Below are positions 280 to 39,266 of a stretch of DNA of 64,000 nt, in pieces. Within the stretch, counting starts at the first letter, position 1. Every line of letters begins with the position of its first letter. Origin of the DNA: Escherichia coli. Lineage in GTDB: Bacteria > Pseudomonadota > Gammaproteobacteria > Enterobacterales > Enterobacteriaceae. Under the pieces are notes generated by a model that saw nothing but the letters and a program-made list of their open reading frames with translations, searched no databases and was not told the origin of the DNA. The stretch lies in NCBI RefSeq assembly GCF_030013595.1, contig NZ_CP122768.1. One strand, written 5' to 3'. Made by a program: the position numbers and the translations under genes.

Positions 280-294
280 TGTGCTTCTCTCCAT

Positions 295-18389: not shown

Positions 18390-19028
18390 TCAGCGAACCG
18401 TCCATGCCGGGCTGAAATCCTCTTCCTGAAACAGCTCCGTCAGCCCGCTAATCTGTTTCAATCTGAGAACTTCATCCTGGTCCATACCCAGCTCCGTACC
18501 AATGCGTTCATTCGTCCAGCCCAGGCGCGACAGGTCCCTGACAATATCAGACATTGAGGTTATCTGATGTTTGCCCCTGGCCCGGTTATGTCGGATGGTC
18601 GCAGCAATACGTGAGGCCTGTCCCTTTCTCTCCGGATTAATACAGACCACCGGCAGCCAGCCCTTCAGACGTTTTCCCGTACCTGCTTCCCTGCCCAGCA
18701 CCTGGCGATGAAAACCATCCACCACCAGGTAATGGTTCTTTTCCTCAGACACCACCACCGGTTGTGTGAAACCATCTTTCTCCAGTGACTGCTTCAGCAG
18801 TTTCTTCTCACCCGGCGCCATGACATTAGGATTGTAATCATTGGCCACCACCTCATCTGCTTTTACCCACAGCACACAGTCCACTGGCTCATGTGCAAAA
18901 GGACTGACTTCATGAAGCACTCTGCGCAGGTGATTAAGGGCCTGTATGGTCTCTTCTTCTGGTCGTTCCTGGCTGAAGTACTGACGAATCATGTTGCCAA
19001 TTATCTCCGGTGTCACAGAATCCCCCAT
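18390..19028 (-). CDS. ParB-like nuclease-domain protein with DGQHR-type motif (IbrB/DndB-like)
   Basis: 212 aa; YLVVDGFHRQVLGRE (DG-F/Q-HR motif); start overlaps stop region of upstream PAPS-reductase-like gene by 16 nt. Confidence 0.65.
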   Translation of the reverse strand: MGDSVTPEIIGNMIRQYFSQERPEEETIQALNHLRRVLHEVSPFAHEPVDCVLWVKADEVVANDYNPNVMAPGEKKLLKQSLEKDGFTQPVVVSEEKNHYLVVDGFHRQVLGREAGTGKRLKGWLPVVCINPERKGQASRIAATIRHNRARGKHQITSMSDIVRDLSRLGWTNERIGTELGMDQDEVLRLKQISGLTELFQEEDFSPAWTVR

Positions 19029-20290: not shown

Positions 20291-20745
20291 ACTTCATTAA
20301 TAACTCACCGCTTTGGGGATAAATAATAACAACAAAAATCTTCAGATATTAACCTGGTTGTTGGATTTGTTATCACATCCTTTATCCACCTGCTTCTTAC
20401 TGGTAACACACCTGGAAAATCCATGCATTTTCAACATATACTATCCTTTCAACTTGTAAATAAGAAAATATGATGCAGATGGTGAACAATTCAAATATCA
20501 TTTTGCAGGAAGTATTCACTGTAATAGAATTACCCCCTGATAAAGTTTATTCACTAAGGAATTATTCAACAGAAACATTCCCTGTTAGCTTTGAGCAATA
20601 GCACTTATTTTTATATGTATCAGGAATACGTACGTTGATGTAACCAAAACAAAGAAGCCTGTGTCCATGGGGTTCGTACAATTGTGTGTGGCACATGACC
20701 AAATCAGGTTTGAGACCTCCCGCTGCAATATTTTTTATTCAGATT

Positions 20746-23427
20746 TTAGCCTGTCAGGCCTGACAGAAACGCTCCCAACTTCCCTTCTATATCACTGTCT
20801 ATAGTACGTAATCTTAGCAATGGCAGGCCGCATTTCTTCAGTATACTGTTTTTAAGTTCATCACGTTCAGCCTGAACACTGGTCAGATGATAACCTCCAT
20901 CCACTTCAATAACCCCTAATGGAGTCTTCCCGACCTTATAGTAAACAACAAAGTCACAACTGGCCCGGTTACGCATGAATAACTGTTCACGGTGTGTAAA
21001 ATCCCCCCGCTCCAGCGACACCAACTGATTCAGCGCTATTTGTGAATGAAACATCATACTCCGATAACTATCCTGCGACAGGATATCCCGCAACAGGCAG
21101 GCCACAATCTGTTCTGACTTAAAGTGTGAATCATTTGAATTCAATCTACTATTCAGTCGTTCCAGTGATTTGTCATACTCACTGTACAGCAAATCAAATG
21201 CTGATATGACCGGGCTCTCGAAAATCTCTCCGTCATCAGCGTAGTATTTGATGTAACGAATCAGCGCCGCAATATGTCCAGCGTGGCGTTCAAATACATC
21301 ATTACCAGTCACCAGCGTAAATTTATTTCGGGCCCTTGAAACAGCGACATTCACCAGTTCAGGATTATCAACAAACGCGATGTTCCGACTGTGCTGGCTG
21401 CTGCGCTTCTTATCCAGCACAGTGGAAAACACAATTTCATCGCACTCCCGTCCCTGAAATTTATGCACCGTCGATTTCACAAAATCAGCAGGCAGCACTT
21501 TTTCAGCCAGATTAACCTGTGCATTATATGGGGCAATGTATCCCCTGCTACTTTCTTCATCCCAGTAATGACCTTCCAGAGATTCAAGCTCCCTGAGATT
21601 TGAAAAATTACGGGTATGGTTTCCTTTTGCCGTGATGACCAGAGATAATGAGGCTTCACCGGAATCAACCGTTAACGGTATCAGAGCATTATCATAAAAC
21701 TGCTTATTACAAAATTGAATGATTTTAGGATGACAACGATAATGCTCTTTAAGAAGGGTTACTGGCACCATGTTCCTGAACAACATACAAACCGAATCAA
21801 GTAGACTATATTTCTCACAATTATAGTATTCTGCCGGTGGAGATGGGCTGTTCGGGAGTAATACAGGAACATGTGGAAGTTGCTTACGATCCCCTACAAC
21901 GATTACATTACGGGCACATCCCAGTCCCAGAATGCCCGGAACAATATCCTGCTGCGAGGCTTCATCAATAATAACATAATCAAGAAGGGCCCCCTTGCCG
22001 ATAGAGTTAATAATCGAATGCGTACTGCTACCAATAATCGGAAAACGCTTTATAAAACGGTCAAATTCATCCCTGTATGTCTCTGCCGAGAATGAACTTC
22101 TTGTTGAAACATTTCTTCGCAGATGTTGCTTTAAATAAAGCATAGACCATGATGTCAGGCGCCCCAGTAAAATTTTAAAATCAGATTTTTTAAATACTTC
22201 CTCATATTCATTCAGAGAAATTTGTTTTTCCCGGATATTTTTTTCATAATAAGAAAGCTGAAGAGAAGTAAATAGCGCCAGCCTTCTCTCCGGAATCATC
22301 AATGGTTTGACTTTCAGTATCATGAAGTTTAACAACAAATCAATTCTGTTTCTGAATCCAATCCGCCTGTCAGAAAGGTAATGAATATAAGCCATCAGGT
22401 CGGTTGTTTTTTGTGAGGAAAATCGGTATTTGTGAGAAAAAAGCTCCTCCGGTCGAAGATTCTGACTCTGCCATTGCTGCAGGTATTTATACTCAATATT
22501 CAGCTCATTAATTTCTGCTTTTAACGAAGCGACCTGGTTAATGGCATTCAGGTGTTTTTTCACTTGTTGAAGTACATCATCAATCGCATTTGCAGACGGT
22601 GAGTCAGGTAAGACTTCCTCAGAACGCGAAATCGACGTTGAAAAAAACTGTTGCCTGTTCCCCGTACTCCCCAGTCGTGCCATCACATATCCCAGTTGCT
22701 GTTTGTCCATCTTTTCATAAACATTACTGACAGCTGAGTTATTATTGGACAAAATTGCCACTGTTTTATTCTGAATTAATATATTAGCAACAATATTGAG
22801 TATAGTCTGTGTTTTACCTGTTCCAGGTGGTCCTTCAATAACTGAAATCTGTGAGGAAAATGCCCGTTCGACAGCCAGCAACTGACTTTCATTAAGACCA
22901 AACGGAAAAATCAAACCCCATGGCGAATCACGTTTTTTACTCTGTCCTGAACAGTATGCATGCAAGGCGGTATCCGGATGAGGAACTATTTTCTTTATCT
23001 GCCTAAGGATATTCTCATCGATATTTCTGTTATTACCACGGGCATAAAAAATACGTTCATTAGCCACCCTACACAAGTAATTAAACACGGCATGCTCTGT
23101 AAATGCTGAACACTGTTGAAAGTCAAGGCCGGTCGTTTTCATGATGTAGGGTCGTTCACCCTCGCGGTAATAAACAGCAGCATATTTATCACCATATATA
23201 ATAACCAGTTCAGCCCGGGATGTTACAGCGTTCCCTTTCCTTTCGAGGAAAACATTTCGCAAATTTACAGTTGGCGTTATCTGACATACAGAAAGCGGAC
23301 GAGTATATTTTCTCCCGCTGCGAAAATGACAGGTCAGCATAACCTCTCTGTCGTCATTTCCAGCCCACAGCGTCCAGTCGGTAATTTTATGAGTCTTATT
23401 TTCACCGTCAACACAAATCGTGACCAT
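20746..23427 (-). CDS. Superfamily-1 (Upf1/DNA2-like) helicase with N-terminal unknown domain and C-terminal Vsr/DUF559-like endonuclease domain
   Basis: 893 aa; Walker A GPPGTGKT, Walker B IIDEASQ, motif III VVGDRKQLP, YRCHPKIIQFCNKQFY, motif V VHKFQGRECDEIVFS, motif VI VAVSRARNKF; C-terminus CDFVVYY...VIEVDGGYH...AERDELKNSILKKCGLPLLRL resembles the DUF559/Vsr-type PD-(D/E)xK fold. Confidence 0.75.
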   Translation of the reverse strand: MVTICVDGENKTHKITDWTLWAGNDDREVMLTCHFRSGRKYTRPLSVCQITPTVNLRNVFLERKGNAVTSRAELVIIYGDKYAAVYYREGERPYIMKTTGLDFQQCSAFTEHAVFNYLCRVANERIFYARGNNRNIDENILRQIKKIVPHPDTALHAYCSGQSKKRDSPWGLIFPFGLNESQLLAVERAFSSQISVIEGPPGTGKTQTILNIVANILIQNKTVAILSNNNSAVSNVYEKMDKQQLGYVMARLGSTGNRQQFFSTSISRSEEVLPDSPSANAIDDVLQQVKKHLNAINQVASLKAEINELNIEYKYLQQWQSQNLRPEELFSHKYRFSSQKTTDLMAYIHYLSDRRIGFRNRIDLLLNFMILKVKPLMIPERRLALFTSLQLSYYEKNIREKQISLNEYEEVFKKSDFKILLGRLTSWSMLYLKQHLRRNVSTRSSFSAETYRDEFDRFIKRFPIIGSSTHSIINSIGKGALLDYVIIDEASQQDIVPGILGLGCARNVIVVGDRKQLPHVPVLLPNSPSPPAEYYNCEKYSLLDSVCMLFRNMVPVTLLKEHYRCHPKIIQFCNKQFYDNALIPLTVDSGEASLSLVITAKGNHTRNFSNLRELESLEGHYWDEESSRGYIAPYNAQVNLAEKVLPADFVKSTVHKFQGRECDEIVFSTVLDKKRSSQHSRNIAFVDNPELVNVAVSRARNKFTLVTGNDVFERHAGHIAALIRYIKYYADDGEIFESPVISAFDLLYSEYDKSLERLNSRLNSNDSHFKSEQIVACLLRDILSQDSYRSMMFHSQIALNQLVSLERGDFTHREQLFMRNRASCDFVVYYKVGKTPLGVIEVDGGYHLTSVQAERDELKNSILKKCGLPLLRLRTIDSDIEGKLGAFLSGLTG

Positions 23428-23667
23428 ATTCTTACTCAGAAATTATCATTTAACTTACGGAAAATTGTTAAGGCACTCCCGATATTAGCTCCGGAGGATT
23501 TTCCACAACTCCGGGACTGTTAACATATTTCTGCCTGCCATATATACATTGAATTTAGTCATAACAGTCAATACCAGAATTACAGGAATGCGATGCCGAT
23601 ACGCTGGTTATTGAATACTGGTAGCCCCTGAGCACTAATTCATCACGATACTCTGTATTTACTGTTT

Positions 23668-24801
23668 TCACTGCTTTTTACAACCATTCCCCCAGGTAAA
23701 ATGCTGCTCCTCCGGTGATGGCTGTGTCAGAAACTGCCATCCCGGAATAGCCACGCTGACCGCCAGCAATGCCGCACAGACACCAGCCACAAACGGTTTC
23801 AGAAACGTGGGCGGGGATTTCTGAAGGGAGGGTGACTGCTCCGCCTGCACTTTCCCCTTGCGATTATCAAGGCTCAGTGCATCCAGACGCACCGCGCCAT
23901 TTGCCGCAAGCAGCCCTTCCCGGTTATCCACGCTTCCCGGCAGACTCAGCGAAAAATCCCCTGTTCCCGTCTGAATCAGACTGCCTTTACGATTTGACAG
24001 GCTTTGTGCCGATATCTGCAGTGTGTCGGCATTTATCGTACCGCCATTACTGCTGAACTGCCCGGCAGTCCGGGCGGAAAGCGTATCGGCACTCAGTTGC
24101 GCATTCTGTGTAGACAGATTTCCACTGGTTGCATTCAGCTCAGTATGTTGTCCCTGTATCCGGCTGTTACCTAAATCCAGCCCCTGCTCAATGTCCCGTA
24201 AATCCAGCAGAGAACCTTCGTGTGCCGGGAATGAGGAATACAACTGAATATAGTCATCACTGTCCGGTGTCAGACGCACATGTCGCACAACACCGGGAAT
24301 AATAACCAGCCGGAGGATACCGCTTTTTAAATCCTGCGAAGGTGCCAGAACACGGGTGGTGACATAACCATGATCGACCAGACGGTTCTGCAATGTACTC
24401 ATCAGCAGATTAATTCCTTTCGCCCCCAGGCAATGCCCGACCGCCCCGTTGGCGATTTTTTGTAAAGGCAGCCAGTGTGGTAACGCATCAGCCCCCTTCA
24501 GTTCCGTCTGTTTAATCTGAAAACAGGGCGTTTCAACAGGAAAATTAATCTTATGGGCAAAAGAGCCAGGTGCAGAAAGGCGAACATCAGGGGCTGAAGG
24601 CGTCAGTTGTTGCTCAAGGGCTTCCTGACGCTGCTGCTGAATGATAAATGCTTCATCTCCGCTACGCCGGACATCCGCTGCCTGAAGAGATAAAGGCGAT
24701 AATAAAGCAGACATCAGTGTCAGTGACAGCAAGGACGGACAGCGCCGGAATAAGCTTTGTTCCTCAGTCCTCTCGTTCCTGCAACATAATTTTCCAGTCA
24801 A
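23668..24801 (-). pseudogene. Two-partner-secretion remnant: TpsB/CdiB-like POTRA N-terminus fused to TpsA/CdiA-like repeat fragment
   Basis: Signal peptide [17 protein letters not shown]-like block ([10 protein letters not shown]...[17 protein letters not shown]), then low-complexity hemagglutinin-type repeats; no beta-barrel region, so likely an internal-deletion product. Confidence 0.4.
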
Positions 24802-25388
24802 ACGAAAAACCTTTTATTCATGTCATACCAACAATCACCAGCCTCCTGACGATACCTCCCACCATGTTTTGCGATGGCACGCTACCGCCCTTCCGGTATT
24901 TACCCGCATCAACCGGTACCAGAATGCTGAGTAACAAACCAGCTAGAATTGACTTAATTTTGATCATTATAGAATAATGATCTGAACTACAGCAACATGA
25001 CAGATTTATCGATCGATATAACACAAATGAACAGTTCTTTATTCTGACAAATATCGCAAAAACAGCACATTACAAAATTTATAACCATAATTACTGGAAA
25101 AGTGCAGAAAATTATTCCACTGAATGCTTTTAATACAGTTGGTTAGCTTAAAAAATAGCAATTTTTGATTTCAGTCATTGAAAGTTGCAATGTTTGACGA
25201 TTCAACAGCATTTAAGTGAGTTTCAGGATATGGGAAGGACATGAAAGGAGGAGCGCAATAAAATACACAGGAAGAAGGGGAAAATGTTTCGTAAAAACAG
25301 AAAATTAACAGCGCACATCAGGAAACGCAGTCTCCTGATTCAGTGCTACCACATGAAAATTTAGTTAACTGTTACCGTACTAAAATTT

Positions 25389-25580
25389 ATGTCAGAAGAT
25401 GTTCCATTACCGAAAGTCAATCAGCGATACAAAGACGATCATGGTGCGCTTGTCACCCTGACCAGTGTTGAGGAAACCCGGGTGGTGTTTATGCAGGACG
25501 GCTATCCGCATCCCTGCATGCGACCGATGTACAACTTTCTGGGAAAATTCAAACCCGAACCCCGGGAAGAAACAGAATAA
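25389..25580 (+). CDS. DUF4222-like small prophage protein
   Basis: 63 aa; pattern RYKDDHGALVTLTSVEETRVVFMQDGYPHPCMRPMYNF fits the recalled DUF4222 consensus. Confidence 0.45.
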   Translation: MSEDVPLPKVNQRYKDDHGALVTLTSVEETRVVFMQDGYPHPCMRPMYNFLGKFKPEPREETE

Positions 25581-25632
25581 AACGAAATCCCTGCCGGCAA
25601 TCACACTACCTGATAGCAGCATAATCCACTTA

Positions 25633-25941
25633 TTAATTCTCATCCCCGGAGACAAGCCCAGAAAACCACTCCGGGTGTTCACTGTATGCCGTGTTCAGCG
25701 CATCCCTGGAAACGTTTATATAAAAGCTGTCCTGCAATTTGCGGGTAACAACTTCTGCCAGGCGATTCCGGTTATCCACCAGTCCGGCATAACCTCTCTC
25801 TGCCAGCCACTCATTCAGTTCATGTTCCAGAGACAGATTGATAATATCATAATCGGACCTTGCCATTCCCGTTTCCTTAGCACATGTTTTCAGGCACGGG
25901 GATAAAGTATAAAGAATGTCATACTGCTGCTGCCAGAGCAA
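25633..25941 (-). CDS. Hypothetical small protein (true start may be the internal Met giving ~77 aa)
   Basis: ORF on same strand as the two downstream hypothetical genes; no motif recognised. Confidence 0.3.
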   Translation of the reverse strand: MLWQQQYDILYTLSPCLKTCAKETGMARSDYDIINLSLEHELNEWLAERGYAGLVDNRNRLAEVVTRKLQDSFYINVSRDALNTAYSEHPEWFSGLVSGDEN

Positions 25942-25961
25942 TATTCCCCCTGATGGTTGTA

Positions 25962-26621
25962 TCAGAGATGGTATGCCGGTACTTTGCGGGTTGTTCCCGT
26001 CAGGTTATCGTGCACCTCCACGGTCGTGGTCACCACCGGCATTCCGGCCTTTCTCAGCCTCAGAACATCAGCCGCAATACGCTGACTGCCAAACCAGAAC
26101 AGGCCGTCCAGTGCAGTCACCAGTAAACCCGCCTCCAGTGCATACTTCAGCCGTTCACGGGGCGCTTTCACTTCCCGGGCAACCTGCTGATATGGCAATG
26201 ATGTGTTTTCATTCCCAACCACGCGACGAATACGGTGAGACAGATGATACCGGTATGTATCCGGCACACCAGAAAGGCTGGCCTTCAGGCTGTACACGCA
26301 GCCAAACCGTTTATCGTTAAACACCTCATTTTTCTGGCTGATGCCCCATTCTTCACGCAGCGCGGCAATCAATTGCGGTGTACGGGTAAGCAGCAAGCGA
26401 AAAGGCAGTTCAAAACTGGTGACGTAATCCACATTCAGCAGTGCAATACGCAACCGTTCTTCTGGCCCGGCCTCTGTCTGCCGGCACTCCTCCAGAACAT
26501 CCTGCCACTGCCGGCGAAGACGGGGGGATTCGTTCCGTTCTGTAAAACAGTATTTATCCGCCAGATAGTCAATTCGTGTACGCATACTGAAAGGAATTCC
26601 GTATAAAGATTCAGCAGACAA
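25962..26621 (-). CDS. Hypothetical prophage-type protein (possibly YagK/YfjJ 'inovirus Gp2' family)
   Basis: 219-aa ORF; family suggestion rests on size and island context only. Confidence 0.35.
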   Translation of the reverse strand: MSAESLYGIPFSMRTRIDYLADKYCFTERNESPRLRRQWQDVLEECRQTEAGPEERLRIALLNVDYVTSFELPFRLLLTRTPQLIAALREEWGISQKNEVFNDKRFGCVYSLKASLSGVPDTYRYHLSHRIRRVVGNENTSLPYQQVAREVKAPRERLKYALEAGLLVTALDGLFWFGSQRIAADVLRLRKAGMPVVTTTVEVHDNLTGTTRKVPAYHL

Positions 26622-26673
26622 AACTTTATCAGCCAGTAAAAATTAACGGAAGCATTGATATTCCTCCCGACAA

Positions 26674-27183
26674 TCACCGGATGATTGTTGCAATAACCTG
26701 CGACATAAAGGACTGAACAGCCGTTTTTAACGCCACGTATTGCCCTGATGAACCAGGCCGGGCCACCCGAAAACATCTTTCCACCCGGCATTGTCCGCCA
26801 GCACTTATCACCGACCAGGTCTGTTGCAGTAAATCCACCAGTTGCGCACATTCTTCATCAGCCATGACGCCGACTCGCGGATGGCAAATACTCGTCTGGC
26901 TGAGCAGCAACAGACATCGTATCTGTGCTCCTTCATGTTGTTCCCGCAACCAGCGTAATACCACCGGCGCTGATGGGCTGACCGTGTGATTATGCTCCGT
27001 AATACGTTCGTGTACCCGTCGGTGAAAGGAACTACAAAATGTCTGAATCTGTTGACCATAGATTCCTTCTGCCGAATAGAGCGTGAAGTGAAATGCCAAC
27101 AGATTTGGCCAGTGGTCCACCGCCTGCTGAACAAAACGCCGGATTTCCCCCGGCTCTGAAATTAAGGCTTCGGTTATTTGCAC
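26674..27183 (-). CDS. Hypothetical prophage-type protein
   Basis: 169-aa ORF directly upstream of 25962-26621 on same strand; could be the N-terminal part of one split gene. Confidence 0.35.
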   Translation of the reverse strand: MQITEALISEPGEIRRFVQQAVDHWPNLLAFHFTLYSAEGIYGQQIQTFCSSFHRRVHERITEHNHTVSPSAPVVLRWLREQHEGAQIRCLLLLSQTSICHPRVGVMADEECAQLVDLLQQTWSVISAGGQCRVERCFRVARPGSSGQYVALKTAVQSFMSQVIATIIR

Positions 27184-27628
27184 GAAATGTTCCTTTTCAA
27201 CCCCTGTTGAATTTTGTCAAGCCGGTGCAGACACAGTAAAGCGCGCATCAACACCTGAAAGGTACGATACAAACACAAGTTACAAACAATAAGAACGGAA
27301 GGACAATTAATCAGTGAGGAATAATAACTAAATTAACCAAAAGAATGTTACTGACAATACTACCAATACTTAAATAGCAATATATTAATTAATGTAAGAA
27401 CAGATGCCCGGTAGGACATATACACAATACATCCACAAACACACTCTTTTCATTAAATCAATCACCTGATTAAACCATGAAAGTGTGATGTAAGTCAAAA
27501 TTACTGATACTATCAATTGATAATGATTATCTCTATCATTATCGTGAAATTCGAGAATGAAAGGAGAAGTAGTCATTATAAGCCTTTTATAAATCGTCAT
27601 CATCATAGTAAAGTAGAACACTTTTTAT

Positions 27629-28099
27629 ATGAGTTACTATATGAAAATATACTGGACAAGAAAACGTATTCCTGAACTTTCAGCACTTCCACCTTCATTA
27701 AGAAAGAAAAATTTTACTGACGCATATAATGCAGCATCTTCTCATATCGAATACTGGATAGGTGCTGGCGTCTCATTTATCTCGATGATGATTTTATCCA
27801 GAGTATATGACTTTCTTTTACCCGCCCAAGATACTTTCCCGGGTGATATCATCAGAAGTTTATGTGTTGTGTGTCCATCCATATTAATCTGGTTTCAGTT
27901 TTCGGTATATGTCATGAGGAAATATTACAGACATATTCTGGTGCGAGGAAAAGAAACCGAAACCATTTCAGAAAGGTTGATACGTGAGGCTGATACACGA
28001 GAATATGAACTATGGCGTCCGGTCCGTCGCTTTTTCTCCATTGTTTTCCTCATTGTTCTATTAGGTTGCATTCATTCACTGATAACAACTATAAAATAA
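27629..28099 (+). CDS. Hypothetical membrane protein in AT-rich DNA
   Basis: 156 aa with at least three hydrophobic segments; strongly AT-rich codon usage. Confidence 0.35.
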   Translation: MSYYMKIYWTRKRIPELSALPPSLRKKNFTDAYNAASSHIEYWIGAGVSFISMMILSRVYDFLLPAQDTFPGDIIRSLCVVCPSILIWFQFSVYVMRKYYRHILVRGKETETISERLIREADTREYELWRPVRRFFSIVFLIVLLGCIHSLITTIK

Positions 28100-28336
28100 A
28101 AGTTATGGCTGTTCTGATACAGGAAAATAAACGTTCATTCTATGGTTACCTCTTCCTGTTATATAGAAGAATTTTAAACGACAAGTAAGGGAATATAAAT
28201 GAAAATAACAAAAAATAAAAATGCAACTATAAAAAACAGTCATCAGTCGGCTGCTTTTCAATGTTTACCTTATCATTTTCTGGTAATGCTGCCAACTTAC
28301 TGATTTAGTGTATGATGGTGATTTTAAGGTGCTTGC

Positions 28337-28612
28337 GTGGCTTCCATTTCCATCAGATGTCCTTCCTGCTCCGCTACTGAAGGCGTGGTGCGTAACGGCA
28401 AAAGCACTGCCGGACATCAGCGCTATCTCTGCTCTCATTGCCGTAAAACATGGCAACTACAGTTCACTTACACCGCCTCTCAGCCCGGTAAGCACCAGAA
28501 AATCATTGATATGGCCATGAATGGCGTCGGATGTCGCGCCAGTGCACGCATTATGGGCGTTGGCCTCAACACGGTTTTACGTCACTTAAAAAACTCAGGC
28601 CGCAGTCGGTAA
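28337..28612 (+). CDS. insA: IS1 InsA
   Basis: 91 aa [40 protein letters not shown]... zinc-finger protein. Confidence 0.9.
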
Positions 28613-29034
28613 CCTCGCGCATACAACCGGGCAGTGATGTGATTGTCTGCGCTGAAATGGACGAACAGTGGGGCTACGTCGGTGCTAAATCACGTCAGCG
28701 CTGGCTGTTTTACGCGTATGACAGGATACGGAGGACGGTTGTGGCGCACGTCTTCGGTGAACGCACTCTGGCCACACTGGAGCGTCTTCTGAGCCTGCTG
28801 TCGGCCTTTGAGGTCGTGGTATGGATGACGGATGGCTGGCCGCTGTATGAATCACGCCTGAAGGGAAAGCTGCACGTTATCAGCAAGCGTTACACTCAGC
28901 GCATTGAGCGACATAATCTGAATCTGAGACAACATCTGGCAAGGCTGGGACGGAAGTCACTGTCGTTCTCAAAATCGGTGGAGCTGCATGACAAGGTCAT
29001 CGGGCATTATCTGAACATAAAACACTATCAGTAA
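28531..29034 (+). CDS. insB: IS1 InsB (transposase frame; expressed as InsAB' by frameshift)
   Basis: 167-aa ORF overlapping insA in the -1 frame, classic IS1 arrangement. Confidence 0.9.
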
Positions 29035-29050
29035 GTTGGAGTCATTACCT

Positions 29051-29311
29051 GAGAATAATACCTCCTGGGTAAGTGAGCAGATACTTTCAGCGCCTCCGAA
29101 AGATGTAAATATTCGACTTGGAGTCGGTTCTTTAGAAGGTACAACCGTCTCACATGTTCAGCGATTGCATCATTCGTTAATCGCAGCTGGTTTGGAAAGT
29201 AACCTCACTGTCTATACCGGTGGTCACGATTATGCCTGGTGGCGCGGAGCAATTATTGATGAATTAGCAAATTATAATTGCAGGAAGGTATCAAATAATA
29301 ACTCTGTGTAA
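29051..29311 (+). pseudogene. C-terminal fragment of an alpha/beta-hydrolase esterase (Fes/IroD/IroE-like), truncated by IS1
   Basis: Open frame continues straight out of the IS1 right end; ...LTVYTGGHDYAWWRGAIIDELANY resembles enterochelin-esterase-family C-termini. Confidence 0.35.
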
Positions 29312-29452
29312 AATATCGTTTTATCGTCAGATAACTCTTTCTGCAATATTATTATGGGAGACTATCTCATTTATTTAGTGATGTCCTTCATTTATGTGAT
29401 GAAGGACATTATATTACTCATAACATTTCTCGTTGAAAATTTCAGCAATACG

Positions 29453-30577
29453 CTACAATTGTTTCCCGTTGTTTTTTAATTTTCTCATCAAAACCTCTGC
29501 AATCTCTGCAGGACTGGGTTGTTCAGCCATTTCAGCGGCTACCTGATCTGAACAGAAGCGTAGTGAATCATCATAAAGAAGGCGATTTACCAAATCACTG
29601 GTCAGTCCATGCTTGTCCGGAATAATCCCACACCCACGCTTCGCAACAATTTCTGCATTAACAGAGCGATCTGCACCTTCGCCAAACACAATCTGTGGTA
29701 TTCCACTATACAGCGCTGTCAGGGTATTACCTGCGCCACCGTGATGAATAAATCCATCAGCTCCATTAAGGAATACACCCATAGGTATCCAGTCAACCAG
29801 ACGTACATTTGATGGTAGTTTTCGTAAACCAGTACGAGCATTTATTGCAAGTTGCAAAATGATATCAGCATCAACTTCATTTGCAGAATCCATAACCCAT
29901 GAAATCAGCTCCAGACCATCAACCATTGGTTTTACAGTGCCAAGGCTGATAAGTAAACGTTTCCGATCAGAATCCCTGTCCCACCATGTTTCCTTTACAG
30001 CACCTCCGTTATAAGGAATATATCTCATTGAGATAACCGGTTCTCCAGCATTTTTAAGAATGCTCATACTTGGGGGAGCAACATCAATCCATGCTAAATC
30101 ACATAGTGGACCGCTGACTCCATGCCGCCTGTAAGCATTGCTTAAAGAACGGTTTAACATCTGAATATGGGCAGATGTATGCGCGAATCCAACAGCCAGC
30201 ATCACTGAAGGAATTCTATATTTAGCAGCAACCAATGGGCCTGCCGGATCAAGAGGGGGATAGACTATTAAATCTGGCCTCCATTTTCCTGCAAAATCGA
30301 TGAGGTTATCTGCCATTTCATCGCTAAAAAAAGAGAAATGACCAATAATATTACTTTTTTTCCTCAACTCTTCCTGATGGCGATATCCAGCCTCTGAATC
30401 TAAACCTGGAACTGCATCAAAAACAACCAGTCCAGCTTCTGCTGCTTTATTCGCGAATTTGCCAGCGCTACTAATTACTACATCATGTCCAATTACACGA
30501 AAGGCCTGAGCCAGAGAAATCAATGGGTATAACAAACCGTACAGCGGTGGGCCAATAAAAAGAATACGTTTTCGCAT
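29453..30577 (-). CDS. iroB: Enterobactin C-glucosyltransferase (salmochelin synthesis), orphan copy
   Basis: 374 aa; MRKRILFIGPPLYGLLYPLISLAQAFRVIGHDVVISSAGKFANKAAEAGLVVFDAVPGLDSEAGYRHQE... and GT-B C-terminus HHGGAGNTLTAL match my recollection of IroB along the whole length; no iroCDEN nearby. Confidence 0.8.
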   Translation of the reverse strand: MRKRILFIGPPLYGLLYPLISLAQAFRVIGHDVVISSAGKFANKAAEAGLVVFDAVPGLDSEAGYRHQEELRKKSNIIGHFSFFSDEMADNLIDFAGKWRPDLIVYPPLDPAGPLVAAKYRIPSVMLAVGFAHTSAHIQMLNRSLSNAYRRHGVSGPLCDLAWIDVAPPSMSILKNAGEPVISMRYIPYNGGAVKETWWDRDSDRKRLLISLGTVKPMVDGLELISWVMDSANEVDADIILQLAINARTGLRKLPSNVRLVDWIPMGVFLNGADGFIHHGGAGNTLTALYSGIPQIVFGEGADRSVNAEIVAKRGCGIIPDKHGLTSDLVNRLLYDDSLRFCSDQVAAEMAEQPSPAEIAEVLMRKLKNNGKQL

Positions 30578-31306
30578 TAAAAAAGTCCGTCTTCTGCTTA
30601 CCTGTTTATTTTTCTATCTCTAAGAAAACATAATTAATATTATTTTTATGTGAGCTTATGCACAAAAATAACCAAGTATATTATCTTCTGGTAGAGATTC
30701 AGGATACAGTTTGTAGGAGCTTTCTTTTTTGAACAATGATTTGCAGGACAGTTATGCTAAACTAGCGGAATCAGTATCACAACAATAAATGACTGATCAT
30801 ACCTGAAATTTGAATTAACAGGCATCATGAATGTCAATAGTCTAAGCGGTGACTACTTATATCGCTTGCATAAATACTAAACACTGACTAGAAAAGTATT
30901 GGATAACCCCGTCACTAAAAGTAACGCTTCGGTTATTTGCTCGGAATGTATTAACGCCAAGATTGTTAGCCGTTACGCCTTATATCACTGGCGCTGACAA
31001 ATGTTTCTTTTCTAATTTACTGAACCGGCGCAGACACGCAGGAAAGCACGCCGGCACCGGTGTAATGCCAGTTCTAATCAATAAGAATGGAATGACGAAT
31101 CAGTCAGGAAGGGATAACAACCCGCTGCTGAACGGAAGGTATCAGCAGGAAGATGAACGGGAATATCGCCAGCACCAAGGGCAGGGCCGGGTTCCACAAT
31201 ACCAGCGCTGGCATTTTGCACATTGCCAGCGTACCGGCATTACAACACGTTTCATGCTGCTGCCCCCCAGGATTCCTCGATTCGTTGCTACATCCACTGC
31301 TCTACT

Positions 31307-31504
31307 TCACTTCCACTGCTCCACTTCACTTTTGTACCAGCGGCTGCTGCGCCCCAGTTTGATGGGTTTAGGGAAATGGCCTTCACTGATCAACTTGTAA
31401 AACCATTTGTCGGTCATACCGGTGAAACTGGTGATATAGTTCATGTCGATCAGGGAATTATCGGCACGCAGAAATACGCTGTCGTGGCTTGTTGTAGTCA
31501 ACAT
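31307..31504 (-). CDS. AlpA-family phage regulatory protein (excisionase-like DNA binding)
   Basis: 65 aa; ...YKLISEGHFPKPIKLGRSSRWYKSEVEQW matches the AlpA motif (F-P-K-P-x-K-L-G...W...EV..W). Confidence 0.65.
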   Translation of the reverse strand: MLTTTSHDSVFLRADNSLIDMNYITSFTGMTDKWFYKLISEGHFPKPIKLGRSSRWYKSEVEQWK

Positions 31505-32989
31505 GGTCAGAATGTCCTGTGAGATTTATGAAGATTGTGCGAATGCGGGAAATCTACTGAGCTGTGCTTTCAGAACTGGCCTGTTACGGGATACCAGGGA
31601 TTACCGGCGGGGTAACGGGCTTCCGGATCATACACACCACGATTATCGCGGACAAAATCACTGAACGCCCATATCACCTCTTTAAGTATGTCTTCGCAGT
31701 CCGGTAAATGACGATCCAGCGCCACATCCCGGGTGGTACAGCTTTGATGCGCCCGGTGACACAAAGCCCGGATTGTTCCAGACATCCTGAATCAAACGCC
31801 CCAGATTAGGGGCGTCGAAATATGCCTCTCTGACCATTATATTCCGGCGTATAGGTAGCAGGTCTGAAGTGACAATGCGTCACCTGACGTTAAAAGTCAC
31901 CCAAGATGACCCCAGTGGGGGCAACAAGTATAAAACCGTTTTTTGATTAAGTGGTCGGATATGAAAAGGGGAAGGTTTATGTGAAAAATACCTGTGTTTT
32001 CTTTGAAAACACACAACAGTATCAGGTTATTTATGTTTATACAGTGCGTTCCAAACTGACCTGAATAATTACGCAAGTTGCAACAATAAAACATTTTTGC
32101 CGTAGTGTGAGGTACTCCGGTAAATTGCTTCCCAGGTGCAGACAATGACTAACGAAGAACTACAGGCAATCGCATTATCCATGCTTGAGCGCCAGCGCGA
32201 AAAAGTACACCAGCAACGAGAGTCTTTGCTTAACCCATCTCCATTCACCAGGCCAAAACGATTGGAGCTTGAAGCATTCTTGGACAAATACCCACGGCGG
32301 CTTAAATCAGGCAAAACCAGACCACCAGGCTGATAGCTCACAGTTTGTTCTCCGATTCAATAAAACGGATAAGAACCATCAGCGCGGTAGCGTAAGGCAC
32401 TACAGCGCATTGCTTTACGAGTAATAACAATGGATTTATCACCAGAAGACGCAAAGTTTTTACGAGAACTGCAACATCGTATGCTCAGAGAAGCCATTAT
32501 CGAACAGCAAACGGGCATGAGCGCCATAGACCCATTGCGATACAAACGGGCCTCATCTCCTTTAGTTGACGACAATTCCAATGCGGATAAAACACGTCCA
32601 CCACACTGATTACATTTTTCATTAGCACAGTGGTGTGATGCAGCATACGAGGAAAACCGGATGAATGAGAACAAAATAAAAAGGCTGGAGCAACTGTTAC
32701 AGGCACGCCAACGGGAGTTTGCCACTAAATGGGGACGTGCCGCGCTGCCACATGAACGCCTAACCTATTTTCCACTTGAAGACCTCATTAAAAATAATGG
32801 CAAAAAAATCAGGTCTGATAAGAAACACTTCTTAGAATGCAATGAAGACAAATAACAACAATCTGCATATTGCCACCAACCACAGATGTGGCATCGTTAT
32901 CAGCGCACTTGATTTTCTTTATATCCACTGACGAGTTTGCCGGTCATTCTGGTATCATGCAGATATTTACGGCGTACAAGCACACTAGC

Positions 32990-33540
32990 ATGACATTGTA
33001 ATAAGGCCTGAGCCTAACGCTTTAATGTGTGTCATACACTCAGTGGCGTAATCGTTGACAATATGGTGCATGTAATCGTAAGCGTCCAGCGAAATCCATC
33101 TGGTCATAATCTGAAGCATCCGACAAAGTGGTGTCCACCAAATAAGTGATCTGCGCCCAATATCCTGAGCCGGAACTTTGACAAAGGCCAACGAAAAATG
33201 GGAGCGGATGTTACAGAGTTCCCGGTACAGGGGAAAAGTGGTACCTGTCGCCAGTTCTCCGATCTGTTTAACCGGGAAATTATCTCCTACAGCTTGTCAG
33301 AAAGGTCGGTGATGGAGCATCGTTAATACGATGCTATACGATGCATTCACAGTGCCCGGCCAGAGGATGCCCCGTCGCTGCATATGGATCAGGGTTGGCA
33401 ATATCGAATTGCAGGCTATAGGCAAAGTTAAAGCCCCATGGAGTAGCACAAAATATGCCGCACAAAGGAAACGGTCTGAATAACGCAGTGATGAAGAACT
33501 TCTTCAGCACACTGCTAAAACGCATAGTGATCGAGCGCTG
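32990..33540 (-). pseudogene. IS3-family transposase debris (several frames, both strands)
   Basis: Plus-strand frame ends ...NGLNNAVMKNFFSTLLKRIVIER (IS3-family C-terminus) near 33530; other short transposase-like stretches nearby; no intact ORF. Confidence 0.4.
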
Positions 33541-36205
33541 ATTCTGGCGAACAACTGAACTAATACATCAGAATCTGCATTATGTTAAATAAATATAAAA
33601 AGATGGTTTAAATACCCCGTTACTTTTGACTTACACTATACGGTATCGCATCGTTTAATATTCGCACCGGCCAGATTTTTATTTCTATTAGTTGTCACAA
33701 TACTGAATGCGTACGACCACAGTATTCTGGCTCCTGTGTGGTTATGCTTTAATTCTGCGTTCCGGGCAGATAAGCAGTTGCTTGCAGGAATCCTTCTTGT
33801 GTTAATGTCAGTTCCCCTTTTACCAGTGCTGATTTCCACATTCCGTCCAACAGAGCTTATAGCCTTTCCCTGGATTATAGCATTGTCCGGCTGAAGTTCT
33901 TTTTGAATAATAATAGAAGCACTGCTGGCAGATCCAGTCCGTTTTTCATAACCCACTGTACTGATAACCATAATCTAATCAGTAGAAATTGAGTCGAAAA
34001 TAAGCACTACTCCATACAGGATAATTAGAGGTCAGTTTGATTATTCACAATTCATCATCAGCATTTTCTATTTCTGACGAAATCAATATGAAAATAACCA
34101 TATATGATAATTATTATAATAACGGCTTTAATTGGAATACATATATTACAACGTATTATATATAATTGGTATTCTGGGAACTATATTCTCAAAATACAGT
34201 AGAAACGAGGTATGTTTCTGGTGGAAAGGACAGTGGGATTAAAAAGTAAGAATTGATAAAAAAAACGCCAGCAACACATAGTGCCGGCGGAGGGAATACC
34301 CCATGGAGAAAATGTGATGCCTAGAGCATCATGAATATATAATTAAAAATAGTTAGCGTTGTCAATACTTTCACAAAAATAATTTTCGTAGTATAGAAAG
34401 ATATTTTTATGCATGACCTACCTGAATTTGCTCCGGGTAGAGGTTATAAATAAAAATTGAATCACGACAAACACAATATTCATAGTATGGCGATGCCTAC
34501 GCCAGCAAGAATAGCGCCAATAATATTGGGAATATAATAGACACCAGACGCACAGGCATCTCACTCCTTAACAAACAACAATCAGGATATTTACTTTTAC
34601 CAAGCTAACTGTTTACACCCAAAGTACACACAATTAACCATTCAATAACAAATGGCAATATCCATAGCCATACGACTTTACCTTGTAATGTTCGGTATTT
34701 CTTTATAATTATTCTGGGAAATCTAACATTTATTTTTAAAATCAAATTATCTTGTTGTTTAAAAATAAGTTCACATACTTTATCATCTTCTTCCGCCATC
34801 AACATCTCTGCATACTTAAACATTTCAGAACGTTCCTTTAGCACAGAAGAGTAATTATATGTCCAGTTCCCAGGCAATAATGCTTATGGATATTTAATTC
34901 ATAATTTAGAGAATATTTTGCAATAATATTTGGCAGTATTCAGAAATACCTGAAAAATCATACTATACAGCCCTAGGGAATGGATAAAGATTCTAACAAA
35001 GCATTTCAACAATATATACTTGTTAAAAATCCATATCGAAATGCCGTTGCAGCATTAATATATGCCTCATTCATAAAATGTAAAAGAGCAAGCTCGTACC
35101 AGTAGGGGGGAAATTCATTGACATGTCCTGTCAATACGTACAGAGCCCTGCCATGCTTGCCAGCACGTAACAATTCCGCCCCCAGTAACCAGCGTGTTCC
35201 CTGATTATTCTCAGGGTTATATGTTAGTATTTTATCAATGAGTATAACGGCATCCTGATGACGCTGTAAATGAACATTCGCCAGAATTGCAGCATAAAGA
35301 GCGCAAATGCATATGCCAGATGAGCGTGAATATCAATGATGTCAGGAGCATGTCAGGCAAGACGCCTGAGTTTGTTGACGTAATTTGTTTCGTTTATTTC
35401 ATCACTATCGTATGCGTCAAGAGTTTTTTCAAACTCATCCCGAAATGGGCCAAGCCTGGTTTCAGGAAATAAGAAATACCCTTGGTTATTGTTCACTTAA
35501 AAGTATAATTTGTAATTCAAATCCTGAGCCTGTAAAGCGGGGAGTAACATATTCTATTCTGAAGAGAATAAAAGTCGTGATGCGATGTATCAAGCCCGGA
35601 TTGTAATCCCAGATTAACATAGATCACAAAACAACTTATTCTTCACTAACGTCAAGATAAATATCGTTGTATGCCTTATCACGACTACGAATACCAGCAA
35701 GATACAACTGACATACGGAAAGATACCACGTTTTTTACTCCCGAAAATAACGCTAAAAAGCTACTTCCCCATCGTTTGTCCTTAGTATTGCCAGCGCCAA
35801 CAATGTGGGCTGACATGATAAAGCTGTCTAGGAAATTGTTCGCCTCCTCAGCGGACAATCCAAATGGTGATTGTCTCTGTTAAACGTTTATTTTGAAGGT
35901 CGACTGAATAAGGTGATGACGCTGTAGAATTTTTCACGTGCCACAGAATTTTGAACGCTTTCTCTTACAATATTTCAATGTTTCTATCAGTATTCGCCGG
36001 AAGAAGTCATCGACCAAATCATCCCAGTCGTCTCGCATCACTGACCATTCATGGTTGACATGTGGTGGAAATCCGCTTCTACAGTAACCATTTTTTATTC
36101 GCAAAACCGAACACGCCATACGGATAGCTGTTAACTGGCATGCCGAGGCAGTCGTTATTTATATTTGGTTTTGTCAATAATCTTTATTTTTTGTAAAAGG
36201 CAAAT

Positions 36206-36224
36206 ATAAATTATTCTCATTATT
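36206..36224 (+). promoter_or_regulatory. Candidate Fur box upstream of iha
   Basis: ATAAATTATTCTCATTATT matches the 19-bp Fur consensus GATAATGATAATCATTATC at roughly 12 positions by eye; ~50 bp upstream of the iha start. Confidence 0.4.
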
Positions 36225-36275
36225 GTTTGTATTTGTGTATTGTCTTGCCGGTTAACATGATCGGAGATTAGTAAT

Positions 36276-38366
36276 ATGCGAATAACCACTCTGGCTTCCG
36301 TAGTCATTCCCTGTCTCGGATTTTCAGCCAGCAGCATAGCTGCTGCAGAGGATGTGATGATTGTCTCGGCATCCGGCTATGAGAAAAAGCTGACTAACGC
36401 AGCCGCCAGTGTTTCTGTGATTAGCCAGGAGGAATTGCAGTCCAGCCAGTACCACGATCTGGCGGAGGCTCTGAGATCAGTAGAGGGTGTGGATGTTGAA
36501 AGTGGTACGGGTAAAACCGGAGGGCTGGAAATCAGCATCCGAGGAATGCCAGCCAGTTACACGCTGATACTGATTGATGGTGTTCGTCAGGGCGGAAGCA
36601 GTGACGTGACTCCCAACGGTTTTTCTGCCATGAATACCGGGTTCATGCCCCCTCTGGCCGCCATTGAGCGTATTGAGGTTATCAGGGGGCCGATGTCCAC
36701 ACTGTATGGCTCTGATGCGATGGGCGGTGTGGTGAATATCATTACCAGAAAGAATGCAGACAAATGGCTCTCTTCCGTCAATGCAGGGCTGAATCTGCAG
36801 GAAAGCAACAAATGGGGTAACAGCAGCCAGTTTAATTTCTGGAGCAGTGGTCCCCTTGTGGATGATTCTGTCAGCCTGCAGGTACGCGGTAGCACACAAC
36901 AGCGTCAGGGTTCATCGGTCACATCACTGAGCGATACAGCAGCCACGCGTATTCCTTATCCCACGGAGTCACAGAATTATAATCTTGGTGCACGTCTTGA
37001 CTGGAAGGCGTCGGAGCAGGATGTGCTCTGGTTTGATATGGATACCACCCGGCAGCGTTATGATAACCGGGATGGGCAACTGGGGAGTCTGACGGGGGGA
37101 TATGACCGGACCCTGCGCTATGAGCGAAACAAAATTTCAGCTGGCTATGATCATACTTTCACCTTCGGAACATGGAAATCGTATCTGAACTGGAACGAGA
37201 CAGAAAATAAAGGTCGTGAGCTTGTACGCAGTGTACTGAAGCGCGACAAATGGGGGCTTGCCGGTCAGCCGCGGGAGCTTAAGGAATCGAACCTTATCCT
37301 GAATTCATTACTGCTTACCCCTCTGGGAGAATCTCATCTGGTTACGGTGGGGGGCGAGTTTCAGAGCTCGTCCATGAAAGACGGAGTTGTCCTTGCCAGC
37401 ACAGGTGAAACTTTCCGGCAGAAAAGCTGGTCGGTATTTGCTGAGGATGAGTGGCATCTCACGGATGCACTTGCGCTGACTGCGGGCAGCCGCTATGAAC
37501 ATCATGAGCAATTCGGGGGACACTTCAGTCCGCGTGCATATCTGGTCTGGGATGTGGCAGATGCCTGGACGCTGAAAGGCGGTGTGACCACGGGATATAA
37601 GGCACCCAGAATGGGGCAGCTACATAAAGGGATTAGTGGTGTGTCCGGGCAGGGAAAAACAAATCTACTTGGTAACCCCGACCTGAAGCCGGAAGAGAGC
37701 GTCAGTTATGAGGCTGGGGTGTATTACGATAACCCCGCCGGTCTGAATGCCAATGTCACAGGTTTTATGACTGACTTCTCCAACAAGATTGTCTCTTATT
37801 CCATAAATGATAACACCAATAGCTATGTAAACAGCGGAAAGGCCCGGTTGCACGGTGTGGAATTTGCCGGCACATTGCCGCTGTGGTCAGAGGATGTCAC
37901 GCTGTCACTGAATTACACCTGGACCCGAAGTGAACAACGTGATGGTGATAACAAAGGTGCGCCGCTGAGTTATACCCCTGAACACATGGTGAATGCGAAA
38001 CTGAACTGGCAGATCACCGAAGAGGTGGCATCATGGCTGGGTGCCCGTTATCGCGGGAAAACACCACGTTTCACCCAGAATTATTCGTCACTGAGCGCTG
38101 TACAGAAGAAAGTGTATGATGAGAAAGGAGAATACCTGAAAGCCTGGACGGTGGTGGATGCAGGTCTGTCGTGGAAGATGACGGATGCCCTGACGCTGAA
38201 TGCTGCGGTGAATAACCTGCTCAACAAGGATTACAGTGACGTGAGCCTGTACAGTGCCGGTAAGAGTACGCTGTATGCCGGTGATTACTTCCAGACGGGA
38301 TCATCAACAACAGGATATGTGATACCTGAGCGAAATTACTGGATGTCGCTGAACTATCAGTTCTGA
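36276..38366 (+). CDS. iha: TonB-dependent outer-membrane siderophore receptor / adhesin (IrgA homologue adhesin)
   Basis: 696 aa; signal peptide; plug-domain and 22-strand barrel features; C-terminal ...YWMSLNYQF aromatic end; length and sequence match recalled Iha. Confidence 0.8.
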   Translation: MRITTLASVVIPCLGFSASSIAAAEDVMIVSASGYEKKLTNAAASVSVISQEELQSSQYHDLAEALRSVEGVDVESGTGKTGGLEISIRGMPASYTLILIDGVRQGGSSDVTPNGFSAMNTGFMPPLAAIERIEVIRGPMSTLYGSDAMGGVVNIITRKNADKWLSSVNAGLNLQESNKWGNSSQFNFWSSGPLVDDSVSLQVRGSTQQRQGSSVTSLSDTAATRIPYPTESQNYNLGARLDWKASEQDVLWFDMDTTRQRYDNRDGQLGSLTGGYDRTLRYERNKISAGYDHTFTFGTWKSYLNWNETENKGRELVRSVLKRDKWGLAGQPRELKESNLILNSLLLTPLGESHLVTVGGEFQSSSMKDGVVLASTGETFRQKSWSVFAEDEWHLTDALALTAGSRYEHHEQFGGHFSPRAYLVWDVADAWTLKGGVTTGYKAPRMGQLHKGISGVSGQGKTNLLGNPDLKPEESVSYEAGVYYDNPAGLNANVTGFMTDFSNKIVSYSINDNTNSYVNSGKARLHGVEFAGTLPLWSEDVTLSLNYTWTRSEQRDGDNKGAPLSYTPEHMVNAKLNWQITEEVASWLGARYRGKTPRFTQNYSSLSAVQKKVYDEKGEYLKAWTVVDAGLSWKMTDALTLNAAVNNLLNKDYSDVSLYSAGKSTLYAGDYFQTGSSTTGYVIPERNYWMSLNYQF

Positions 38367-38395
38367 TAATAACAAAACGCTATCACTGACGGTAG

Positions 38396-38440
38396 AATAC
38401 GTTGCCACTGCAACTCCTGGCGGAACAGTGGCAACGTATT
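38396..38440 (+). terminator. 15-bp perfect inverted repeat 30 bp after iha stop (stem-loop, no T-tract)
   Basis: AATACGTTGCCACTG - 15 nt loop - CAGTGGCAACGTATT. Confidence 0.5.
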
Positions 38441-38879
38441 AGGTTAAGTGCATTTCCGATCCGCTAATGAGATTTCGTTACCAACAACTAATATCGTCAC
38501 AGGAAATGCACGGATTATTTTTAACTTATCATTTACATACTTGTCCAGAGTGTAAGCGCACCGTGAAGGACGTGGGGTAAAAATTAGTTTACAGAGAGAG
38601 TGACGTTCCAGGGCAACAACTCTTTCATGCGGTTGGCAGGCCAGGTGTTGATTACACTGATCACGTGGCGTAGCCACGTTTCCGGCTCGATTCCGTTAAG
38701 TTTTGCAGCTACCGATCAGGCTGTACATCACTGCCGCACTATCGCTCGTCATCTCAAAGTCCGGTCTCGTCAGCAGGAAGGTATCATTCTCTCCCGCCAT
38801 TTTTCCAGGGGCCCGGTCAGATAAGTCCCTTTGTCTATCGCTGACTCCTGACTCATAACCCGGTTAGCAGAATGCAGGG

Positions 38880-39266
38880 TCACCACCTCGCCACGACCAA
38901 ATCCAAATAAGTCAATTGCACCTTCTCAATCGCCATTTTGTCAGTAAGCGTACAGCCTGAACTGATGGTATCTTCACCATCAATGACAACGGTGATCGCA
39001 ATTTTACTGACGTTCGCCGGAACACGATCCAGTGCTATCTCAATGCTGGCCTGCTGCGAACCGGTAACGAGCCTGACTGCCCCCTCAGGAGAAGACAAAT
39101 TATTATAAAAGATAAAGTCAGAATCGCCACTGACCTTTCCCTGAGCATTAAGCATGAACAGGCAGGTATCGGGTTCGCCTTTAAAGCCGGATTTGGCAGG
39201 GTACTGAAGATTCAGCCTGATCGTAGATTGCTGAAGGGGTATGTTTTGTCCGGATTGTAAATTCAT
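38880..39266 (-). pseudogene. terF: TerF-like TerD-domain protein, truncated (N-terminal 128 codons only)
   Basis: MNLQSGQNIPLQQSTIRLNLQYP... parallels the TerA N-terminus; ORF is far shorter than a full ter-family protein of this type and is followed by non-coding debris. Confidence 0.5.

Follow-up and report, generated by a model that had tools for sequence, protein, structure and literature searches.

The open reading frame (ORF) at positions 29453–30577 of the 64-kb stretch of Escherichia coli DNA analysed here (hereafter, the window) is, to judge from sequence identity and gene order, mchA of the microcin H47 cluster, and not iroB. Most of that cluster is missing, and an IS1 element stands where related islands carry it. 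We are highly confident of this identity and of the deletion history of the locus, and the explanation as a whole, namely, that mchA is a relic of microcin H47 left by the IS1 deletion and is now decaying, is very probable. The features on which the argument turns are as follows.

26967–28281, no strand assigned: left flank, which also borders intact microcin H47 islands (by alignment to the intact loci L011 and L010)
28200–28281, plus strand: 5' fragment (82 bp) of the gene for a CPBP-family intramembrane protease, cut by IS1 and also frameshifted
28282–29049, plus strand: IS1 element of 768 bp, recognized by its terminal inverted repeats and an annotated IS1 transposase
29051–29311, plus strand: 3' remnant of mchS1, a homologue of iroD, comprising the last 86 codons and the stop codon and convergent with mchA
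29453–30577, minus strand: mchA of the microcin H47 system, putatively encoding an enterobactin C-glucosyltransferase, assigned from its GT1 domains and its near-identity to MchA
30248–30250, minus strand: codon 110 of mchA (GAT, Asp), site of G110D, a substitution found in the stranded allele alone
30355–30361, minus strand: A7 homopolymer in mchA (nucleotides 217–223, codons 73–75), a frameshift hotspot
30578–31870, minus strand: region upstream of mchA, the presumed promoter region, the same as in islands with an intact cluster (by near-identity to SW07163)

The ORF runs uninterrupted from an ATG start and encodes 374 residues. The product matches the Pfam families EryCIII-like_N (E = 1e-50) and EryCIII-like_C (E = 5e-48), which place it, by sequence, in the GT1 family of nucleotide-sugar glycosyltransferases with a GT-B fold, and it shares 70.5% identity over 369 residues with the IroB of an iroBCDEN plasmid; to this extent, the description of the ORF as full-length and IroB-like in the initial annotation is borne out. 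Inactivating substitutions in the catalytic residues, which would have spoken against a working gene, were not found at the positions checked: Glu69, Trp263 and Asp303, which align with E67, W264 and D304 of IroB, are conserved, and the HHGGAGN donor motif is present, as it is in IroB. The roles of E67, H65/H66, W264 and D304 reportedly come from the IroB mutagenesis of Foshag et al. in 2014. A search of the PDB with the glycosyltransferase sequence returned no structure of IroB or MchA, the top relatives being antibiotic glycosyltransferases of the SnogD and CalG3 type. The NCBIfam scan gave generic, sub-threshold GT1 models and none specific for IroB or MchA, and, therefore, these two cannot be told apart by such a scan.

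The distinction is drawn instead by the nearest relatives of the protein. The name iroB, as first proposed, rests on ~70% identity to IroB, whereas the window protein is 99.7% identical to MchA from the intact H47 clusters of SW07163, O104:H4 and E04, from which it departs by a single residue (2–3 nt); it differs from the MchA proteins of EC21Z-147 and GPEC673 at six to seven residues. Proteins named IroB carry a three-residue insertion, G-T-K/Q, following the sequence KKSNI, and this insertion is absent from the window protein, from MchA and from two relatives with a verified microcin context. Moreover, the name given by PGAP to the glycosyltransferase in matching loci is not IroB. Among the cluster representatives, two proteins are closer to the window protein than IroB is, one from a Salmonella plasmid (85%) and one from Klebsiella oxytoca (75%), and both are embedded in a class IIb (siderophore) microcin cluster, not in an iro locus: their neighbours are a convergent 410-residue enterochelin esterase, small ORFs, a 516-residue protein, an HlyC-like acyltransferase, a membrane-fusion protein and an ABC exporter with a C39-peptidase domain. 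The Salmonella locus aligns with window positions 29051–30568 as a single colinear block (77% identity), which covers the glycosyltransferase, the spacer and the 3' end of the esterase, and which ends at IS1; beyond this, blastn and tblastx comparisons of window positions 24000–34000 with the Salmonella and K. oxytoca microcin loci revealed no further remnants of microcin genes.

The synteny within E. coli is decisive for the identity of the gene, and it made a GTDB-wide phylogeny of gene context unnecessary. In the intact clusters (those of EC21Z-147, E04, SW07163, O104:H4 FDAARGOS_349, GPEC673 and BEC1), the gene order is a CPBP-family protease (228 residues), a 107-residue ORF, mchF, the HlyD-family mchE, the acyltransferase mchD, the 516-residue mchC, mchB (annotated 'microcin H47'), mchI, mchS3, the 424-residue esterase mchS1 and mchA. 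The glycosyltransferase and esterase genes converge across a spacer of ~140 bp in the window and in the mch clusters alike, whereas iroB, iroC, iroD and iroE run in the same direction in the reference iroBCDEN plasmid. The resemblance to the salmochelin genes has a ready source: mchA, mcmL and mceC are homologues of iroB, and mchS1, mcmK and mceD are homologues of iroD (PMC7472721, PMC6776366).

The salmochelin genes themselves were sought by tblastn of IroB, IroC, IroD, IroE and IroN from the reference iroBCDEN plasmid against the whole 64-kb window. Neither IroC nor IroE found a match there; IroD matched the esterase stub alone (70 residues, 70% identity), and IroN gave a weak match (31%) to iha. 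Thus, the initial annotation was right in stating that genes for salmochelin export, hydrolysis and uptake are absent from the neighbourhood.

The esterase fragment had also been recognized at the outset as cut by IS1, and this is correct: it consists of the C-terminal 86 codons and begins one base past the end of the element (29049). It is 98.8% identical to residues 339–424 of the 424-residue esterase of SW07163 and 70% identical to IroD; the full-length esterase matches the NCBIfam enterochelin esterase, and PGAP describes the remnant as an 'alpha/beta hydrolase-fold protein, missing N-terminus'. At the other end of IS1 lies the stub of the CPBP gene, which encodes 228 residues in intact islands and is called a pseudogene by PGAP in loci identical to that of the window. 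A tblastn match to residues 14–28, at 100% identity, ends at 28281, and divergence from the intact loci begins at 28282. The left flank is 98% identical to positions 1–1316 of L011 and 94% identical to positions 1–1318 of L010, directly to the left of the intact mch genes in each case, and it contains, in addition to the CPBP stub, an ORF for a hypothetical protein of 152 residues (27642–28100, plus strand) and a Fur-box-like site at 27519–27537 that matches the consensus at 17 of 19 positions, the top score in the window. On the right, the sequence from 29049/50 to 31870 aligns with intact-cluster DNA beginning at codon ~339 of mchS1.

The IS1 element is bounded by the terminal inverted repeats ggtaatgctgccaacttactgat and atcagtaagttggagtcattacc, and its right end lies 403 bp from the stop codon of mchA, in agreement with the ~400 bp noted originally. 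The 9-mers that adjoin it (catttttct and tgagaataa) differ, and a target-site duplication is thus absent; the two sequences that flank it are separated by 10.7 kb in the intact loci L010, L011 and L016. Taken together, these observations imply that the element did not arrive by a simple insertion. In a base-level alignment, homology between the window and the intact loci stops exactly at the two ends of IS1, which, therefore, stands in place of ~10.7 kb (approximately positions 1317–12001 of the intact locus L011). The missing segment comprises most of the CPBP gene, the 107-residue ORF, mchF, mchE, mchD, mchC, mchB, mchI and mchS3, together with the first ~338 codons of mchS1; consistent with this, tblastn found no homologue of mchB, mchC, mchD, mchE, mchF or mchI in the 64-kb window. 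The deletion would have arisen either through an IS1-mediated adjacent deletion or through recombination between two copies of IS1, both of which leave the same picture.

Both 40-nt junctions of IS1 are identical in all eight of the orphan loci compared, namely, those of O145:H28, ETEC, O157:H7, O111:H8 and O26 and of three further assemblies, and they are absent from all five intact loci. Junctions shared to the base across lineages point to one ancestral deletion that was inherited, or transferred with the island; on this comparison, both the endpoints of the deletion and its single origin are taken as established. The junction should consequently be a handy lineage marker, given that a single IS1 deletion accounts for all of the STEC and ETEC copies sampled.

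The surrounding DNA identifies the island. The window carries cah, copies of IS66, iha, terZABCDE(F) and terW, and is, thus, the tellurite-resistance/adherence island of STEC; it is 99.8–99.9% identical to the loci of O145:H28 and pig ETEC, and the locus is identical to those of O157:H7, O111:H8 and others. The gene iha occupies 36276–38366 on the plus strand, 5.7 kb from mchA and on the opposite strand, much as the initial annotation (~6 kb) had it. SW07163 represents the undeleted island: window positions 29045–38943 (including iha), 24673–28281 and 18936–23834 match it at 99.4, 96.7 and 98.4% identity, respectively. The stretch that corresponds to 24673–28281 ends in the CPBP gene, and the full mch cluster lies between the blocks, this cluster being all that the window lacks relative to the SW07163 island. 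Thus, iha stands beside mchA in the progenitor and in the deleted derivative alike. Across 5426 complete E. coli genomes, a sensitive search found mchA with the esterase end, at identities of at least 95%, in 645; the IS1 configuration is present in ~512 and the intact mchB–mchS1 segment in 155. True iroB genes emerged from this search as separate matches at ~68% nucleotide identity.

We envisage, therefore, an ancestral tellurite-resistance/iha island that would have borne the whole microcin H47 cluster beside iha. An IS1-mediated deletion would then have taken ~10.7 kb, with one endpoint within the CPBP gene and the other at codon ~338 of mchS1, and the deleted island would subsequently have spread through STEC and pig ETEC lineages.

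What the island has lost can be appreciated from the complete system, in which an enzyme of the MchA type glucosylates a dihydroxybenzoyl ring of enterobactin and an esterase linearizes enterobactin, MchCD (MceIJ in the E492 system) links the product to the precursor at its Ser-rich C-terminus, and MchEF together with TolC exports it (PMC7472721). Within the full H47 cluster, C-glucosylation would, thus, fall to MchA, linearization to MchS1, attachment to the precursor MchB to MchC and MchD, export to MchE and MchF, and immunity to MchI. As mchB, mchC, mchD, mchE, mchF and mchI are all gone, the window locus can yield no microcin, and we infer that mchA is left with no partner pathway, as a relic on which selection has relaxed. 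It is likely, although less assured than the identity of the gene, that mchA no longer has a function for which it is retained by selection.

The alleles of the orphan lineage bear marks of this. Residue 110 is Asp in five of five IS1-deleted loci and Gly in five of five intact-cluster loci; of the 87 cluster representatives with at least 50% identity, IroB included, 85 have Gly at this position and two have Ala, and none has a charged residue. The O26 copy has an additional substitution, P57L, which replaces a Pro common to all 87 of these representatives. The A7 tract is intact in the window, whereas it is reduced to A6 in the orphan copies L021 and L022 and extended to A8 in L023, with the ORF split as a result. 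The 287-residue frameshift product (P0123) is encoded on 218 contigs, complete chromosomes among them, although sequencing error in the homopolymer could account for some of the frameshifts called from draft assemblies. In one complete genome (H46), an IS1 lies inside the region, and both point deletions and IS insertions have been described in the 'iroB homolog' of STEC, including one of the two copies in EDL933 (PMC9144400). The pattern of substitutions and frameshifts fits relaxed constraint. Nevertheless, the orphan and progenitor alleles differ by merely 2–3 nt (two intact-cluster alleles differ by 11 synonymous and six nonsynonymous changes), which is too few for a meaningful dN/dS, and which makes both the intactness of the ORF and its few substitutions statistically weak in either direction. 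Thus, of the initial proposal of a decaying locus, the decay stands, on account of G110D, P57L and the frameshifts, but what decays is a microcin H47 locus (mchA and mchS1) and not a salmochelin locus.

The region upstream of mchA has fared better. It has one mismatch in 1293 bp relative to SW07163 and one in 971 bp relative to O104:H4, and it probably still drives transcription of mchA. A promoter scan of the minus strand upstream of mchA detected no sigma-70 consensus promoter. A Fur-like site at 30629–30647 is weak, with 13 of 19 consensus positions matched; 28 sites in the window have this score, and it equals that of the best site upstream of iha. Given this frequency, the site upstream of mchA does not rise above chance.

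The most serious alternative to a decaying relic is that the stranded MchA remains active and provides island-positive STEC with a salmochelin-like, mono-glucosylated siderophore, exported and re-imported by generic routes, with Iha as a possible receptor. We consider this unlikely. In its favour, most of the ~512 genomes, from several serotypes, retain an intact ORF, the residues for donor binding and putatively for catalysis are conserved, and the upstream region is unchanged and holds the weak Fur-like site; at so low a divergence, however, an intact ORF is no evidence of selection. The proximity of iha on the same island, in progenitor and derivative, might likewise suggest a partnership, but the linkage is older than the deletion, and it gives no sign of co-selection with the orphan mchA. 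Against an active enzyme stands G110D, which occurs in the orphan lineage only and puts an Asp where each of the 87 representatives has Gly or Ala, and P57L, the A6 and A8 frameshifts and the IS insertions are accumulating in its relatives. If the enzyme were active, part of the enterobactin made by the core genome would be converted to the mono-glucosylated form, which would then meet no dedicated exporter (IroC), esterases (IroD and IroE) or receptor (IroN). Glucosylation of enterobactin is said, following work by Caza et al. in 2008, to be detrimental when the genes for export and utilization are lacking. Enzymes of the IroB and McmL types are interchangeable, IroB substituting for McmL in strains without it (PMC6776366), which would suit an active MchA; against this, none of the dedicated genes was found in the window, and the count of iron-uptake genes in O145:H28 genomes implies that iroC, iroD, iroE and iroN were undetected there (PMC9144400).

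The strongest form of this proposal, that the G110D enzyme is active and iron-regulated, and supplies O157:H7, O145, O111 and O26 STEC lacking iro genes with a mono-glucosylated catecholate that evades lipocalin-2 and is imported by Iha, appears more doubtful still, and we give it little credence. Were it true, a single gene rescued from a defunct microcin cluster would make up a minimal, 'one-gene salmochelin' system.

Less probable again is a helper role in trans, in which the orphan MchA would serve a siderophore-microcin with genes at another site of the genome, as IroB serves the truncated cluster of Nissle. Cross-complementation between loci is documented, albeit in the opposite direction (PMC6776366), but the 64-kb window contains no homologue of mchB, C, D, E, F or I, and each O157:H7, O111:H8 and O26 chromosome sampled has a single site that matches the mchA query, all of which makes such a role very improbable. 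The weakest alternative, a decayed salmochelin locus that would retain, of an original iroBCDEN cluster, iroB as the glycosyltransferase gene and iroD as the truncated esterase, has in its favour the 70% identities of the gene to IroB and of the fragment to IroD and the label 'iroB homolog' in virulence-gene surveys (PMC9144400), but is ruled out for practical purposes by the far higher identities of both to MchA and MchS1 from intact H47 clusters, by their convergent arrangement and mch-type spacer, by the missing IroB-type insertion and the PGAP name, and by the colinearity of both flanks with H47 islands.

The reading of the locus as a microcin H47 relic has a number of consequences. The 'iroB homolog' of STEC, which virulence-gene screens and at least one comparative-genomics study place under salmochelin and iron uptake (PMC9144400), should be re-annotated as a remnant of microcin H47, and the presence of mchA in STEC is no indicator of a capacity for salmochelin. 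Our literature search found no statement that this 'iroB homolog' is mchA, the older microcin papers being outside its reach, and it found no salmochelin measurements in EHEC. Additionally, the locus explains the source of one 'putative glycosyltransferase' gene of the island, and the iha region of the STEC island would descend from a module of iha and microcin H47 of the kind that is still intact in O104:H4. An active enzyme would be of relevance to the siderophore biology of EHEC; the sequence evidence leans towards decay.

Set beside known systems, the window is simply the STEC tellurite-resistance/adherence island of the OI-43/OI-48, SpLE1 type, from which we find no difference. Its glycosyltransferase gene is, by descent, a member of the group formed by MchA, McmL and MceC of the H47, M and E492 systems, as attested by the one-residue difference, the convergent esterase neighbour and the shared upstream region; the system itself is not present, since the precursor, the immunity gene, the MchCD ligation complex, the MchEF exporter and most of MchS1 have gone from the window, and the allele departs from the Gly110 of intact clusters through G110D. 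With IroB, the enzyme has in common the GT1 family and GT-B fold, ~70% identity, the residues equivalent to E67, W264 and D304, and the HHGGAGN motif; a common chemistry would also be expected, the C-glucosylation of enterobactin with UDP-glucose (PMC7472721). They are, however, paralogues and not orthologues: the window gene is without the three-residue insertion and without iroC, iroD, iroE and iroN, and its surroundings differ in gene order and orientation. By analogy with MceC, the window enzyme would yield chiefly the mono-glucosylated form (PMC7472721).

The closest parallels to its fate are found within the same island family. The microcin H47/M island is small and prone to rearrangement, and is truncated in E. 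coli Nissle 1917, CFT073, ABU83972 and 536 (PMC7472721, PMC6776366); additionally, loss of mchB and mchC has been described among O104:H4 isolates (PMC4667096). The islands of Nissle 1917, CFT073, ABU83972 and 536 are likewise remnants of this small island shaped by IS elements or deletions. Those of the Nissle type have lost mchA/mcmL and mchS1/mcmK, have kept the genes for the precursor, ligation and export, and borrow IroB, whereas the truncation in the window is their mirror image, in which only mchA and the stub of mchS1 were kept. Overall, we conclude that the gene, the island and the mechanism by which the gene was stranded are all known, and that the locus does not constitute a new kind of system.

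The intact microcin H47 islands used for comparison carry, besides the known cluster genes, a small open reading frame that the window has lost by deletion:

L016 (strain SW07163), 16243-16566: 107-aa 'hypothetical' ORF, flanked by the CPBP gene and mchF

It is also present in two further loci with an intact cluster, L010 and that of E. coli E04 (L011), and its product (MRNITTDELALIHGA/G...NSSTSSSSSGS) combines a double-glycine-type leader with a serine-rich C-terminus, the latter resembling that of MchB, the microcin H47 precursor. A scan of the product against NCBIfam gave no match; because of the leader and the MchB-like C-terminus, it looks like another, putative class IIb microcin precursor, for which the CPBP protein is a possible immunity or processing partner.

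The left flank of the former microcin island, ahead of the truncated CPBP gene, retains a further hypothetical gene:

27642-28100, + strand: hypothetical ORF, 152 aa

Approximately 105 nt 5' of this ORF lies a Fur-box-like site (GATAATGATTATCTCTATC; 27519-27537), which matches the 19-bp consensus at 17 of 19 positions and is the top-scoring site within the 64 kb; match and position together suggest iron regulation of the left-flank genes.

Within the orphan glycosyltransferase gene mchA, there is a hotspot for frameshifting:

30355-30361 (mchA nt 217-223): A7 homopolymer, frameshift hotspot

Public orphan copies of mchA include both A6 (-1) and A8 (+1) alleles of this tract and, since both exist, these would be either of independent origin or the product of slippage-driven tract variation. 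Even nominally intact H47 clusters are damaged: mchS1 of E. coli E04 (L011 10989-12263) contains an internal stop, and in O104:H4 (L017 4402-5382) ISKpn26 lies between mchS3 and mchS1, consistent with a generally unstable island. The window holds a second IS1 copy:

58702-59470: IS1, inverted with respect to the matched locus

It is 96.5% identical to the IS1 at 28282-29049, and could serve as a substrate for more IS1-IS1 rearrangement of the island.

Finally, the island proves to be mosaic on its left side when window positions 1-16400 are compared with the O145:H28 RM12581 locus (L001): cah, a dynamin-family gene and IS66 copies are found both in the window and in pig ETEC, at a place that RM12581 fills with the aerobactin cluster iucABCD-iutA; to the right, the mchA-iha-ter core is common to these loci, at 99.9% identity.
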